Positions 1 to 4,533 of a stretch of DNA of 64,000 nt are shown here, one piece after another. The notes under the pieces were generated by a model. It searched no databases, was not told the DNA's origin, and worked only from the letters and a program-made list of their open reading frames with translations. The position numbers were made by a program, and so were the translations under genes. This stretch comes from a virus: the IMG/VR virus record IMGVR_UViG_3300037348_000049, positions 1-64,000 of that record. The stretch is one strand, 5' to 3'. The stretch's first letter is position 1; every line of letters begins with the position of its first letter.

Positions 1-56
1 CTGAACCAACTGAACCAACTGAACCAACTGAACCAACTGAACCAACTGAACCAACC
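1..56 (+). repeat. 9-bp tandem repeat CTGAACCAA (about 6 copies), encoding EPT repeats
   Basis: Read directly from the sequence; in frame with the first CDS. Confidence 0.95.
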
Positions 57-1673
57 GCGAAAGCTAAGCCCGCTAAGCCCGCTAAGCCCGCTAAGCCCGT
101 TCCAAAAACGGTAGATGATACCAGAGAGTTGCCTACTACTAAAGAAGAGCCACCTCTACTTCCGCCAACTAATACTACAGAAGGCCCGCCTAAAGATAGG
201 ATCGACGACGGCGGCGACATTGTGCACAGTCCTATAACTGATGAAGAGCGCACCGAGGCAATTAGAAAAAAGATACCTGCCTTCATAACTAAAATGGGAC
301 GCATACTAGAATACTTTGACAATAACGGAAAGAGGAAGCAAGCTTCCGACCCGTTTGAGCTACTGAACTCGCTAGCCGAAGCGTATCCAAACGCTAAATT
401 TACTCCCGAGGGCGACGCGCTAATTCTCGATCGCAGAATAGACAGCGACGGTAGGGTTTTTGAGCTCAGGGCATCTAATACTGGGTCTAAGGCCTTAGTC
501 TACTCCATGAATTGGACTGACCCCGAGACTGGCAAAGTTGAAACTCTAATTCACTACGACAAGCGTCACTCTATAACATCAGTCTTTAGGAAAGACAACT
601 CCTCGGATGGTCTGATGGCTAAACTACTCAGCGTTGAGCCATTGAAGCAGGGAAATGCTTCACCTATTCCTGGTTTCGGCGAGGCCTCTCTCAGAGAGCG
701 TGCTGAGTGGTACAAGATGAAGCAGAAAATGTTTACCCCAGAAGGTCTTGCAACTTTCTATGGCAATGGCCGTCCAAAGATTTTCCACAAAGACAAGGGC
801 ACATTCAAGCACCGAGACGTACTTAGTATTTGGGAAGCTTACCCTGAGTACAAGGACGATCCTAGCGACCCTGAGCTGAAAGACGCCATATATCACGGTC
901 TACTTGGAGTATTTGGAAGATTGCCTATTGACCCACGTGTCCACAGGGAAGCTAGAAGGCAATTAAGATTAGAGTTTAGAAAGCGTTTCCCTAAAGAAAA
1001 CGCTCGCAAGATGGGTGCACTAATTACTAATGCCTCTAGGATGTCTATGGGCAAAACATACGATCTAGACCCCGATACTAAAGCTAACCCTTATGCATCA
1101 AAGAACCGTGTCACCCCTATCGAGCCGGGTCAGATTGTGGAGTACACAAACAACAAGGAAGAGCTAATAAACCTTGTAGTTACTGGCTACGCACCAAACG
1201 TCAACGTTAGCCCGGGCAATGAAGGCTACGATTACAACGACTTTATATACCTAAAAGATGCCGATGGAAAAACTGTACGTCTTAACGCCATACAGTTGAG
1301 GATACTAAAAAACCAGGACACCCCCTTAACTAAATATAGTCCAAATATTGAAGGTAAAGAGCTACGGGATCATCGAGCAAAACTTGGATTCTATGACGAT
1401 TCATCCACCGACAGACCTAATAACCCAACAGGTGTTGACACGTTTGCTGGAGAGCCCGACGCCCCGTTACCAGGTGTTATAGATGATCTAGAGCCTGGAG
1501 ACGTGCTTCCTAACCTAAATGGTGAAGGCATTCTTGGGGAGATTATATCCTCTAGGTTTGTTAGAGGCAAAGATGACGAAGAAGGAATTGCGTTTACGGT
1601 AGTAACTGATAGCGGTGAGACTAAAATCGTAGTGTATGCTCTTGGTAAAGAGATACCACCAAAAAAAGACTAG
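3..1673 (+). CDS. 5'-truncated large protein (C-terminal part of a probable polyvalent/virion-associated protein)
   Basis: The frame is open from position 3 (EPT x6, AKP x4, then VPKTVDDTRE into the tracked ORF at 129), so the true start is upstream of the window. The C-terminus has two short beta-rich, SH3-like segments. Confidence 0.75.
   Translation, partial: EPTEPTEPTEPTEPTEPTAKAKPAKPAKPAKPVPKTVDDTRELPTTKEEPPLLPPTNTTEGPPKDRIDDGGDIVHSPITDEERTEAIRKKIPAFITKMGRILEYFDNNGKRKQASDPFELLNSLAEAYPNAKFTPEGDALILDRRIDSDGRVFELRASNTGSKALVYSMNWTDPETGKVETLIHYDKRHSITSVFRKDNSSDGLMAKLLSVEPLKQGNASPIPGFGEASLRERAEWYKMKQKMFTPEGLATFYGNGRPKIFHKDKGTFKHRDVLSIWEAYPEYKDDPSDPELKDAIYHGLLGVFGRLPIDPRVHREARRQLRLEFRKRFPKENARKMGALITNASRMSMGKTYDLDPDTKANPYASKNRVTPIEPGQIVEYTNNKEELINLVVTGYAPNVNVSPGNEGYDYNDFIYLKDADGKTVRLNAIQLRILKNQDTPLTKYSPNIEGKELRDHRAKLGFYDDSSTDRPNNPTGVDTFAGEPDAPLPGVIDDLEPGDVLPNLNGEGILGEIISSRFVRGKDDEEGIAFTVVTDSGETKIVVYALGKEIPPKKD
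63..98 (+). repeat. 9-bp tandem repeat GCTAAGCCC x4, encoding AKP repeats
   Basis: Read directly from the sequence; in frame with the first CDS. Confidence 0.95.
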
Positions 1674-1690
1674 CCCCCAATCAGGGGGGC
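1661..1690 (+). other. candidate -1 programmed ribosomal frameshift signal
   Basis: In-frame A_AAA_AAA heptamer (1661-1667), a 5-nt spacer, then the hairpin GCCCCC-AATCAG-GGGGGC (1673-1690). The -1 frame is open from 1649 to 4354. Confidence 0.6.
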
Positions 1691-1789
1691 GGTAGCCCAG
1701 AAGGGACTAACGATGGATCAGGACCAGGAGCCGAAAGTGACCCAGGGGGATCGGGACCAGATGGCAAAAGTCTACCCTCAGGAGAGGGA

Positions 1790-4354
1790 GTGGACGGACG
1801 CGGAAATCGAGATGGCAAAAGCCCTTGGTCATCTCTAGATAGTCAACTACCCGAGGCAACTCGCGCTCAAGAGTTACGTGACTCTGGCTCATCTACTCCG
1901 GATTTATTTGAACTAGACCCTCAAAAAGACGCTGAGGCATTCCGAGACGCAATTCAGAAGCTAAAAGAGAGCAATAAATACTCAGCATCTGTCTATGTTT
2001 ACGATGTCGAAGAGTATCGTAACATGCGACTTTTCTCAACCGAAGATGGTACTGCTGGTATTGCACTGAAACCAGATGGCGACATTGTCTCCGGGTTTGT
2101 CTACGCTGACTCCCCACATAAAAGAGCCATCTCATCTATGCTGTCTCAAATGGTCGAGCTTGGCGGCGATCGTTTGGATGCTTTTGACACGGTACTACCA
2201 GGGATATACGCTAATTCTGGGTTCAAGCCAGTAGCCAGAGTTCGTTGGGACAATGAGTTCGCACCAGATGGCTGGGATAAAGAAACCTACAGTAAATTTA
2301 ATAATGGTGAACCAGATGTAGTAATTATGGCGTATGACTCAGATCGTGTCGGATCTGAGTACGACCCTACAGAAGGAGAAGTCTTTGATGACTATGATGC
2401 AGCCATGGAGGCCCGCAATACAGAGCTAGAGGAACTAAAAAAAGAAAAAGAGCCGGATCTTTCTCCTGACAATGAGTACGCTGATCCTGACCCCGGCCAC
2501 GCGGAGATCGAAGCAAATAAAGTTAAATTTGACAACAACCTATTCTATTCAGTTATGATTCCCCGAGTGCTGCTAGAAGATTTGAATGAGACAAGTGCTC
2601 TCGAAAATGATGAAGAAAATTTCATATACAAGCCGGGTAAATACATCCTAAAAGGTGATCGACTGAATGGGTTAATTTCTGCCATTGAGAACAGGATAGA
2701 ACTCTACCGTGACGACAGAGAAGGCTACTCTGATGTAGGACCTTCGGCCATCAGGGCCCTAAAAAACTTTAGAGTAGCTAGTAAAAACCCTGTAGACGCT
2801 ACGGCCGAAAAAGCACCTGCAAAAAATAAAAAGGATGAACGCCGCAAATTAGTCGACAAGCTTGTCGAAGCATCCTTCAATTTCTCGGAGACGGAAAATC
2901 TAGGACAGCTTTCGGAGGCAGAAGTCATAGAAAGTCGAACTGCTATGTGGCCGAATAGTAAAGCCTATTTAGAGAGAAAAATTGCGGAAGGTGGTGACTT
3001 CGACGGGTCACGTACTGCAAGATTAAAAAGAGGACTAGACGGCTTTATACAAGAAGGTCTAGACTCCCTGAGAGAGCTTAGGGAAGCAGAAAGAGCACTG
3101 GCCATATTTGACGGAGAATTAGCAGGGGAGCCAGAGAACGCTCCCGAAGCTCCCTCGATAGAGACAGGCTCGCCTGGCCCCGTCTCGAGAGAGCGTCCTT
3201 CTTTCGATGCAGGGATCTCTGACTTTGAGGTCGACGATAGCGAATTGGAGACCGGCGAAGAAGAGGACCTATCTTCCGCGGTGAAGCTTAAAAGGCTAAT
3301 AGCCAATAACCCTGGCCTCTCTAGATTTATAAATCGTATGGCTAAGGCTCCTGTGCGAAACCCAGTAAAAACGCTGCAGAGCGCAAGAGACCTGAAGAAA
3401 GCACTTGCGGACCTTGACGTGTCTGACTTTGAGGTAGAGGGGTTCACTCCAAGCGTAAGTCATTCAGGAATGAGTCGCTCTGACATAAACTTAATTAGGG
3501 ATAATCTTTCTGCTAATAATATAACCGTTTCCCCAGAAGAAGCAAGAGACCTGGCGGATATCCTCAACTACGTAATTAACTTTGAAGGTATGACCACCGA
3601 AGAAGCTGTTATAGCCGCACTAAAGAAAGACGGGATTAGATACTCTAACAAAAATAATATTGCCGTCAAATCTGTAGATCTCCCGATCACATTTGAAAAC
3701 GAAGATTCTAAAGAGTTACCGGATCCTAAGACGGCTATACTGGTTACCACTCCGAAAGAGACCAAAGATATTCTTGCTGCCATGGGCAAGATAAATGCTT
3801 TTTTTGAGAGTGAAGGATCGCTTCCGGGCACCTTAGATCCAAACGCTATCTCCATTAGAGTTGTGCCAAATCAAAATGCCTTCGACAACCTATACAACTT
3901 GTTAGACATAACAGAGACAGGTAGAATAAAATCTCGTGCTACCACTTTTGGTGCAAACATACCCAACCTTGTAGAGCTCCCAGTTGAAGAATACCTAGCC
4001 GGTAGAATTCCCCTAACCGACAACAGAGATCTGAGCAGCAACATCATACTAAACTTAAAGTTCCTCAGGGAATACGCAGATAAGACTAAATTTGAATCAG
4101 GTTCCAGAATTCAGGAAACATTAATCCACGAATTTGGCCACACTCTTCATCGATCCTTCGGCCTCAGTTGGGGTCGTAAAAAGACTGTCAGTAGTCTTGG
4201 CGAGTACTACAGCGTGTTCAAGCAATTTGTCTCGGATTACGGAACAACAAGCCCTAAAGAGCACTTTTCCGACTCGTTTTCGCAGTACCTCCTAACCGGT
4301 GATTCTCCCCAGGGGTGGAAAGCATTCATGAAATCTCAGGGTATACTTAAATGA
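1790..4354 (+). CDS. polyvalent-type protein: GNAT-like acetyltransferase domain plus C-terminal zincin (HExxH) metallopeptidase
   Basis: LDAFDTVLPGIYANSGF resembles the GNAT Y-x3-GF motif. IHEFGHTLH followed by VSDYGTTSPKEHFSDSF is a zincin signature with a downstream Glu. The frame is open back to 1649. Confidence 0.65.
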   Translation: MDGRGNRDGKSPWSSLDSQLPEATRAQELRDSGSSTPDLFELDPQKDAEAFRDAIQKLKESNKYSASVYVYDVEEYRNMRLFSTEDGTAGIALKPDGDIVSGFVYADSPHKRAISSMLSQMVELGGDRLDAFDTVLPGIYANSGFKPVARVRWDNEFAPDGWDKETYSKFNNGEPDVVIMAYDSDRVGSEYDPTEGEVFDDYDAAMEARNTELEELKKEKEPDLSPDNEYADPDPGHAEIEANKVKFDNNLFYSVMIPRVLLEDLNETSALENDEENFIYKPGKYILKGDRLNGLISAIENRIELYRDDREGYSDVGPSAIRALKNFRVASKNPVDATAEKAPAKNKKDERRKLVDKLVEASFNFSETENLGQLSEAEVIESRTAMWPNSKAYLERKIAEGGDFDGSRTARLKRGLDGFIQEGLDSLRELREAERALAIFDGELAGEPENAPEAPSIETGSPGPVSRERPSFDAGISDFEVDDSELETGEEEDLSSAVKLKRLIANNPGLSRFINRMAKAPVRNPVKTLQSARDLKKALADLDVSDFEVEGFTPSVSHSGMSRSDINLIRDNLSANNITVSPEEARDLADILNYVINFEGMTTEEAVIAALKKDGIRYSNKNNIAVKSVDLPITFENEDSKELPDPKTAILVTTPKETKDILAAMGKINAFFESEGSLPGTLDPNAISIRVVPNQNAFDNLYNLLDITETGRIKSRATTFGANIPNLVELPVEEYLAGRIPLTDNRDLSSNIILNLKFLREYADKTKFESGSRIQETLIHEFGHTLHRSFGLSWGRKKTVSSLGEYYSVFKQFVSDYGTTSPKEHFSDSFSQYLLTGDSPQGWKAFMKSQGILK

Positions 4355-4533
4355 TGAAGAAAAAAGCGGTTACAGTGCTACCAATTACTATCGACACTGA
4401 AGACGGACCTGTCGAAGAGTTAGTAAACTTAGATGATCTGACCTTAGATCAGATAACAGAGCTTGCGAGAGCTGACAAATCTTATATCCCTTACGCACTA
4501 TCTAGGTACTTAGAAGAGCCACTAGACAAATAG
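4351..4533 (+). CDS. small hypothetical protein
   Basis: ATGA start/stop overlap with the upstream gene; 60 aa. Confidence 0.6.
   Translation: MMKKKAVTVLPITIDTEDGPVEELVNLDDLTLDQITELARADKSYIPYALSRYLEEPLDK

Follow-up and report, generated by a model that had tools for sequence, protein, structure and literature searches.

A probable −1 ribosomal frameshift joining a portal-adjacent carrier protein to an extension with acetyltransferase-like and metalloprotease domains in an IMG/VR virus

The stretch of DNA considered here comprises positions 1 to 64,000 (nucleotides, nt) of the IMG/VR virus record IMGVR_UViG_3300037348_000049, hereafter the window, whose coordinates are used unless a position is called contig, and the question it raises concerns two overlapping open reading frames (ORFs) near its start. 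ORF1, which we call the carrier, stops one codon after a run of seven A residues, and ORF2, its extension in the −1 frame, is open for 895 codons and has no start codon among the first 41, which leaves the question of how ORF2 comes to be translated. The explanation that we favor, with a probability of roughly 0.85, is that a programmed −1 ribosomal frameshift (−1 PRF) joins ORF1 to ORF2, so that some copies of the carrier very probably gain an acetyltransferase-like and metalloprotease module. The elements at the junction are the following.

1-1673, plus strand: 3′ part of ORF1, the carrier; 962 amino acids (aa) when whole, C-terminus ...EIPPKKD-stop
1661-1667, plus strand: slippery heptamer A_AAA_AAA in the ORF1 frame, within CCA AAA AAA GAC TAG (Pro-Lys-Lys)
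1671-1673, plus strand: ORF1 stop codon TAG, one sense codon past the heptamer
1669-1693, plus strand: putative stimulatory stem-loop; 6 G-C pairs, core 1673-1678 with 1685-1690, 6-nt loop
1667-4354, plus strand: −1 frame extension (ORF2), 895 codons plus a TGA stop; first 41 codons accessible from ORF1 only
1667-1816, plus strand: Gly/Ser/Pro-rich linker of the extension, mostly upstream of GTG 1790

The original prediction, which was made from this DNA alone, placed an A_AAA_AAA heptamer at 1661-1667 in the ORF1 frame, a 6-bp all-GC hairpin at 1673-1690 beginning 5 nt past it, and a −1 frame free of stops from 1649 to 4354, and all three were found as described, the −1 frame giving the same translation that it quoted. 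The stem pairs GCCCCC (1673-1678) with GGGGGC (1685-1690) and can be extended by ACU/GGU across a bulge. In the −1 frame a TAA at 1646-1648 is followed by the open stretch, which reads RLAPNQGGGSPEG..., and the first ATG, GTG or TTG in that frame is the GTG at 1790 (Val-42 of the extension), with a GGAG at 1781-1784, 5 nt upstream of it; the peptide LAPNQGGGSPEG...DGK (LAPNQGGG...DGK) is encoded ahead of this GTG. The three elements by which a −1 PRF is recognized, namely an in-phase X_XXY_YYZ heptamer, a structure 5-9 nt downstream and a start-less overlapping coding ORF, are all present. The local hairpin has a predicted energy of −14.0 kcal/mol against a mean of −3.3, which places it in the best 0.2% of 28-nt windows in the first 12 kb, while a 100-nt fold around the slip site is no more stable than shuffled sequences (z = −0.5), and because of this only the local hairpin stands out and no extended structure or pseudoknot is claimed. 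The run of seven A residues is not special by itself, since 15 such runs occur in the window against 15.8 ± 4.6 in shuffles, and it is the conservation of the slip signal in relatives that gives it significance.

Scans of IMG/VR and metagenome contigs gave nine loci counting the window, which represent seven distinct sequences with 34-99% ORF1 identity; the loci of the relatives lie on six other contigs, of which five are IMG/VR records and one is a metagenome contig, the metagenome scan having added one locus. At all nine loci CCAAAAAAAG is identical and is followed by one sense codon, then TAG or TAA, with a GC-rich stem-loop that begins 5-7 nt past the heptamer, and the A run is exactly seven, never longer. 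Heptamer and stem, proposed originally for the one locus, are in this way kept by its homologues, and the stem sequences differ among them (L012 to L019 denote loci of relatives).

Window and L013: stem GCCCCC/GGGGGC, loop 6 nt
L014 and L015: stem GCCCCU/GGGGGC, loop 6 nt
L016: stem CCCCGA/UCGGGG, loop 8 nt
L012: stem UCCCCG/CGGGGA, loop 3 nt
L019: stem CUAGCCCCU/AGGGGCUAG, loop 4 nt
L017 and L018: stem as in L019, weakened by a C-to-G change, loop 4-5 nt

Ranked against the windows of its own locus, every one of these stems falls in the best 0.1-1.7%. They were compared sequence by sequence, as the loop lengths differ and the MAFFT alignment is ungapped, with the 3′ arms out of register. The end of the ORF1 protein is conserved as well: PKK[D/A/V]-stop closes 17 of 19 aligned members of a family in which mean column identity is 31%, and of the two other ends one is LKKA, where A_AAA_AAA is still possible, and one is PKKA with nine further residues (the PKK ends of P0004, P0005 and P0158-P0171 are known from protein sequence). 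Because the PKK-stop C-terminus is invariant in a family that is otherwise so divergent, it points to selection on the nucleotides at the end of ORF1.

The part of the −1 frame that lacks a start codon has the properties of coding sequence. In every lineage there is no −1-frame start codon from the upstream stop until 40-99 codons past the heptamer, and the first starts further downstream are at non-homologous positions, with no Shine-Dalgarno (SD) sequence except in the window. When the 96 start-less codons of L016 and L012 are compared, 31 are identical, 29 differ synonymously and 36 non-synonymously, with 28, 19 and 54 differences at the first, second and third codon positions and no stops, against 7-13 stops in the other two frames; judged by this pattern, the stretch is under clear purifying selection in the −1 frame. 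The bridging peptide of the window, which had been described as a G/S/P linker, is indeed rich in Gly, Ser and Pro, and the part of it that precedes GTG 1790 aligns with a linker inside P0007 (1172 aa), between the zincin and GNAT-like domains of that protein. Alignments of the extension to giant proteins, in a search of representatives, start at extension residues 7-17, well ahead of Val-42, and relative to L015 the linker has a 3-nt indel and no stops. The original prediction had itself raised the possibility that translation starts only at GTG 1790, which the match to the P0007 linker, the purifying selection in L016 and L012, and the distant first starts without an SD sequence in the other lineages make unlikely.

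Carrier and extension are also found joined without recoding. One ORF1 homologue, P0166 (1276 aa), is without the PKK site and the heptamer and continues in frame into ArdC-N and MPTase-PolyVal. Six proteins of 2154-3729 aa begin with a stretch that matches residues 1 to 60-120 of ORF1 and have the ORF2 GNAT-like domain in their interior, and the ORF1 leader also matches an N-proximal stretch of three more GNAT-like-domain proteins, of up to 4068 aa. In other phages, a single polypeptide thus holds both carrier and extension.

In the case of the window, ribosomes translating ORF1 would reach CCA_AAA_AAA with Lys-tRNAs in the P and A sites, where they would be held by the GC hairpin 5 nt ahead. 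Most would read one further codon and stop, giving the 962-aa short form, while a fraction would slip back by one base after Lys-961, pair again without mismatch on AAA AAA and translate a further 895 codons, with the result of a long form of 1,856 aa (961 + 895) in which the carrier is followed by the Gly/Ser/Pro linker, the GNAT-like domain, the middle module and the zincin metalloprotease. The slip would set the dose of enzyme-bearing copies, the QPRDxxGxW leader would be the targeting part of ORF1, and an adjacent 60-aa protein would keep the zincin silent.

Several observations weigh against a programmed frameshift. The stem is short, with 6 bp, and its CCCC and GGGG arms double as Pro and Gly codons of the −1 frame, so that selection on the RNA is partly confounded with selection on the peptide. 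In E. coli A_AAA_AAA is less shifty than A_AAA_AAG, and the host here is probably an actinobacterium. The linker of the window's own group evolves fast, with 6 synonymous and 16 non-synonymous differences and no clear synonymous excess. Finally, the hairpin with its minus-strand T7 fits a loose terminator pattern, and GGAG-N5-GTG at 1790 is a plausible start in the window, from which some independent initiation is possible. If such initiation were the whole story, ORF1 and ORF2 would be two separate genes, with ORF2 beginning at GTG 1790 and the heptamer and hairpin having no role in recoding, an arrangement that would agree with the GGAG 5 nt ahead of the GTG and with gene callers, which predict distinct proteins (P0006 and P0008). 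It would, however, require the relatives to manage without that signal, since the GGAG is lost in L014 and L015 and the other lineages are start-less for 43-99 codons with no SD sequence; it is also at odds with a start-less stretch that is under purifying selection and homologous to internal linkers, and it leaves unexplained why PKK-stop is the best-conserved C-terminus of the family, and we consider it very unlikely. The terminator pattern, taken by itself, would make the hairpin and minus-strand T7 an intrinsic terminator of antisense transcription that lies incidentally at the end of ORF1, and a consensus scan does list GCCCCCCTGATTGGGGGC then TAGTCTTTTT on the minus strand. The chance of this is close to negligible, given that five non-T bases lie between stem and T run, that the genes (ORFs of at least 150 aa) from contig 112000 to window 38252 are all on the plus strand, with just two minus-strand ORFs that lie inside plus-strand ones, and that the conserved phase, the conserved stop and the start-less coding frame would go unexplained.

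The remaining alternatives concern the A run itself. RNA polymerase could add one A at A7/T7 in some mRNAs, and this transcriptional slippage would yield the same fused protein; homopolymeric A runs are a known substrate of the process (Thermus dnaX, some insertion sequence (IS) elements), and everything in the comparison that speaks for a joined ORF1 and ORF2 fits it equally well. Efficient sites of this kind are usually 9 or more, whereas the run here is seven at each of the nine loci, and slippage by the polymerase has no role for a hairpin conserved at 5-7 nt or for a fixed phase, which leaves it an unlikely explanation. Homopolymer runs are likewise common sites of sequencing error, and the run might be a miscount (a true A8 and a single ORF) or the result of a recent inactivating frameshift mutation. 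Neither an error nor a fresh mutation would recur identically, yet the same A7, stop and −1 continuation are seen in six other contigs, in lineages down to 34% identity, and decay would not keep frames of 263-895 codons open, and we therefore regard an artefact or decay as extremely improbable.

If a −1 PRF does occur, what it would add to the carrier is given by the domains of the extension.

1817-2470, plus strand: GNAT-like domain (phrog_2563), extension residues 51-268; AlphaFold2 (AF2) mean predicted local distance difference test score (pLDDT) 92.3
2486-3172, plus strand: middle module of 229 codons, also in P0007, absent in frame from L013
3650-4351, plus strand: zincin metallopeptidase module, with HEFGH at 4127-4141 and, in EHF, the third-ligand Glu at 4259-4261

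The two domain assignments of the original prediction are both supported, the GNAT call at the level of the fold. The top 50 structural matches of the AF2 model are all GNAT acetyltransferases (best Z 10.5, root-mean-square deviation 2.7 Å, 132 residues), Foldseek gives an E of about 2e-3, and homologues of the domain number more than 1600 at E<=1e-10, most of them embedded in proteins of 2000-5000 aa. Pfam gives no GNAT match, the domain profile matches no PDB sequence, and where the acetyl-CoA motif Q/R-x-x-G-x-G/A is expected the window has H-K-R-A-I-S, the canonical form not being conserved in the alignment (A4, by eye). For the metallopeptidase, the support comes from the invariant HExxH with its downstream Glu (H160, E161, H164, E204 and the E-H-F in alignment A6) and from a match of the zincin profile to the helices of the anthrax lethal factor catalytic core (E=4e-5). 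Pfam ATLF and Peptidase_Mx1 matches are stronger in relatives than in the window, whose zincin scores 14.3 bits on ATLF, under the cut-off of 27.4, and only weakly on Peptidase_Mx1, which L016 alone passes (26.6 bits vs 25.6). A match to MPTase-PolyVal (PF18818) is not found in ORF2 at E<=0.1 and is confined to the fused relative P0166 (91.8 bits).

The composition of the extension differs from one relative to another.

Window: linker, GNAT-like domain, middle module and zincin, 895 aa
L013: as the window minus 229 codons, in frame
L014 and L015: linker and GNAT-like domain only, 263 aa
L016: zincin and no GNAT-like domain, 386 aa
L012: zincin and no GNAT-like domain, with about 180 more residues that match no family, 566 aa
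L017 to L019: zincin and a C-terminal part in which a GNAT-like motif is seen by eye, 702 aa

The predicted joint is thus constant and the cargo encoded behind it varies between relatives, which suggests that the extension is a swappable effector cassette. For example, L013 is without the middle module and is otherwise near-identical to the window (7 mismatches in 2001 aligned bases), with an extension that stays open, and this indel looks like the gain or loss of a module within one population.

Next to the zincin there is a small gene that begins at the stop codon of the extension.

4351-4533, plus strand: 60-aa gene whose ATG overlaps the extension stop (ATGA)
Small gene in relatives: L016:7806-8000, L012:4092-4277, L017:8761-9099, L019:3852-4190

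In all five distinct zincin-bearing sequences a small gene of this kind (60-112 aa) overlaps or abuts the extension stop, and it is absent from the two GNAT-only loci; its protein has an invariant TxDTxDGP motif, and in the window it is possibly translationally coupled to the extension through the ATGA overlap. A complex model of the small protein with the zincin scores 0.66, against 0.12 for the best of three controls, on a scale whose mark 58 of 80 solved complexes attain, as do 2 of 110 mismatched pairs, a calibration that is approximate because own alignments were used. At least 81% of the contacts are common to the runs, the pLDDT of the partner is at least 72, and the TxDTxDGP strand contacts H160, E161, H164 and E204 of the zincin. 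The model supports binding of the small protein to the zincin and makes it a candidate cognate active-site inhibitor, or a substrate, of the protease.

The carrier itself is a less familiar protein. ORF1 appears truncated in the window because of the contig end and not biologically, the whole gene running from an ATG at contig 128229 across the circular junction to give 962 aa. It has about 20 homologues (36-90% identity, 850-1121 aa), and it gave no Pfam or PHROG family in profile searches, no lead in the ESM Atlas and no tblastn match in phage records; a model of the window-encoded part (pLDDT 72) contains two small SH3/Tudor-like barrels (Z about 7, not diagnostic) and no convincing fold match. 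A six-frame translation of the genome contains exactly three copies of the motif QPRDxxGx[W/F/Y].

Contig 128307: in the ORF1 leader (in L002/L011)
Window 5875 and window 8878: in the 1454-aa protease-like head protein

The same motif also stands N-terminal to the GNAT-like domain in the solo homologue P0050, and it may be a capsid-targeting or portal-docking peptide. Our best guess is that ORF1 is a virion-packaged carrier of polyvalent type, because it lies beside the portal gene, because its leader is common to giant polyvalent proteins, and because of the QPRDxxGx[W/F/Y] motif.

There are several known systems with which the proposed frameshift can be compared. Among phages, the λ tail assembly chaperone gpG/gpGT and the T7 capsid proteins 10A/10B are −1 frameshift products in which a structural protein is made in a short and a C-terminally extended form. 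According to the account of Garcia et al. 2004 given in PMC10885494, the −1 frameshift of Lactobacillus phage A2 likewise yields a short and an extended form, gp5A and gp5B. The window resembles these systems in having the slip signal close to the end of the upstream ORF on its 3′ side, in the predicted production of a major short and a minor long form from one mRNA, and in the conservation of the site, but it differs in that the protein is one of about 960 aa beside the portal, and not a chaperone or a capsid protein, and in that the extension consists of 263-895 aa of enzyme domains that vary between relatives. In SEA-PHAGES genomes, 2397 of 2476 annotated joined (frameshift) genes are tail chaperones.

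Outside phage structural genes, the nearest parallels are E. coli dnaX, which has A_AAA_AAG, an upstream SD-like element and a hairpin 6 nt downstream, and the orfA-orfB frameshift of IS3/IS911. With both of these the window shares a Lys-Lys slippery heptamer and a simple hairpin 5-7 nt downstream, and as in the IS elements the shift would fuse two ORFs and add catalytic domains. Unlike dnaX, the heptamer here ends in A instead of G, and the shift would extend the protein where that of dnaX shortens it. Four of the seven distinct sequences have a GGAG or GAGG 7-8 nt ahead of the heptamer, in conserved G-x-E-I/V codons, and it may act as an SD stimulator like that of dnaX; the window's own group has AGAG in its place and is without this likeness.

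Regions with the upstream GGAG/GAGG: L016:6609-6638, L012:2353-2382, L017:6624-6653, L019:1715-1744

The domain content of the predicted joined product resembles that of polyvalent proteins, which are multi-domain proteins with, among others, zincin metallopeptidase and GNAT domains that are encoded beside portal and terminase genes and for which packaging and injection have been proposed (Iyer, Burroughs, Anand, de Souza, Aravind 2017, PMC5512222). As in that set, a zincin and a GNAT-like domain would occur in one polypeptide (in the frameshifted product only) beside the portal, the GNAT-like domain is found inside many proteins of 2000-5000 aa, and the fused relative P0166 has ArdC-N and MPTase-PolyVal. 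Polyvalent proteins are, however, encoded by one continuous ORF, whereas here the effector part would be reached by recoding, and the zincin of the window, unlike theirs, has no match reaching Pfam MPTase-PolyVal. Frameshifting is mentioned zero times in the paper that described polyvalent proteins (PMC5512222). Full-text searches of the published literature returned no relevant paper on frameshifting with polyvalent proteins or MuF toxins, so while the proposed mechanism is canonical, we found no paper that describes this gene class or this purpose for it. In retroviruses, Gag is made in excess as a carrier and a frameshifted Gag-Pol minority takes the enzymes into the particle. The logic proposed here would be the same, with the differences that there is no homology and that packaging of either form is presumed here from gene position.

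Polyvalent proteins are presumed to accompany the DNA on injection and to blunt host defences. A frameshift would keep the dose of bulky, enzyme-bearing copies fixed and low among many plain ones, and its joint would be a stable point behind which cassettes can be exchanged, the relatives having as cargo a GNAT-like domain alone, a zincin alone, a zincin with what may be a second GNAT-like segment, or in-frame ArdC-type modules. Taken further, and tentatively, the PKK-stop-hairpin joint might be a conserved docking point shared by a family of lake actinophages, with the QPRDxxGxW carrier packaged in bulk in the head, a minority set by the frameshift bearing interchangeable GNAT-like, zincin or ArdC-type cassettes, and a small inhibitor silencing the protease until delivery. 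Were this picture true, it would amount to a Gag/Gag-Pol-like dosing of injected phage weaponry. For recoding, the −1 PRF would add a gene class beyond tail chaperones and capsids, with a family-wide signal of A_AAA_AAA and a minimal hairpin that is apparently used in actinobacterial hosts. There is a consequence for annotation as well, since gene callers split such genes and assign wrong starts to the second half, as P0006 and P0008 appear to exemplify, and because of this splitting the effector domains become detached from their carrier in databases.

The genomic setting is that of a head gene cluster. The IMG/VR contig has 129,571 bp, of which the window is the start, and although the record labels it linear and 75% complete, the assembly is circular, with 129,444 bp, because its last 127 nt repeat the first 127 exactly (window 1-127 = contig 129445-129571). 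This terminal repeat sits within a region of TEP/AKP tandem repeats in ORF1. The order of genes is terminase large subunit (TerL), portal (phrog_776), a ferritin-like protein of 152 aa, a 242-aa protein and ORF1/ORF2, followed by two small genes, the 1454-aa protease-like protein and the major capsid protein (phrog_777), beyond which there are genes with major-tail and head-tail-adaptor matches. ORF1/ORF2 are thus placed among portal, terminase and head genes, the location by which polyvalent proteins are recognized. The 152-aa protein is Ferritin/Dps-like (Pfam Ferritin, E=2.9e-14) and is encoded directly 3′ of the portal gene.

L011:14987-15445 (contig about 126986-127444): gene for the Ferritin/Dps-like 152-aa protein

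The major capsid protein is closest to those of actinophages, with 68% identity to its counterpart in Actinomycetia phage DSL-LC01, whose 129,469-bp genome comes from lake water, and for this reason the host is likely an actinobacterium. A megablast search of positions 1-4400 against phage records gave no match. In DSL-LC01, which is the nearest cultured relative, the slot of ORF1/ORF2, three genes past the portal and ahead of the capsid maturation protease genes, is occupied by a single hypothetical ORF of 3289 aa (L021:2801-12670 = OQ999401.1 52800-62669), in which homology to ORF2 was looked for and is not detectable. Outside the window, at contig 85626-85701, ARAGORN calls a tRNA of undetermined type with a four-base anticodon (gtta).

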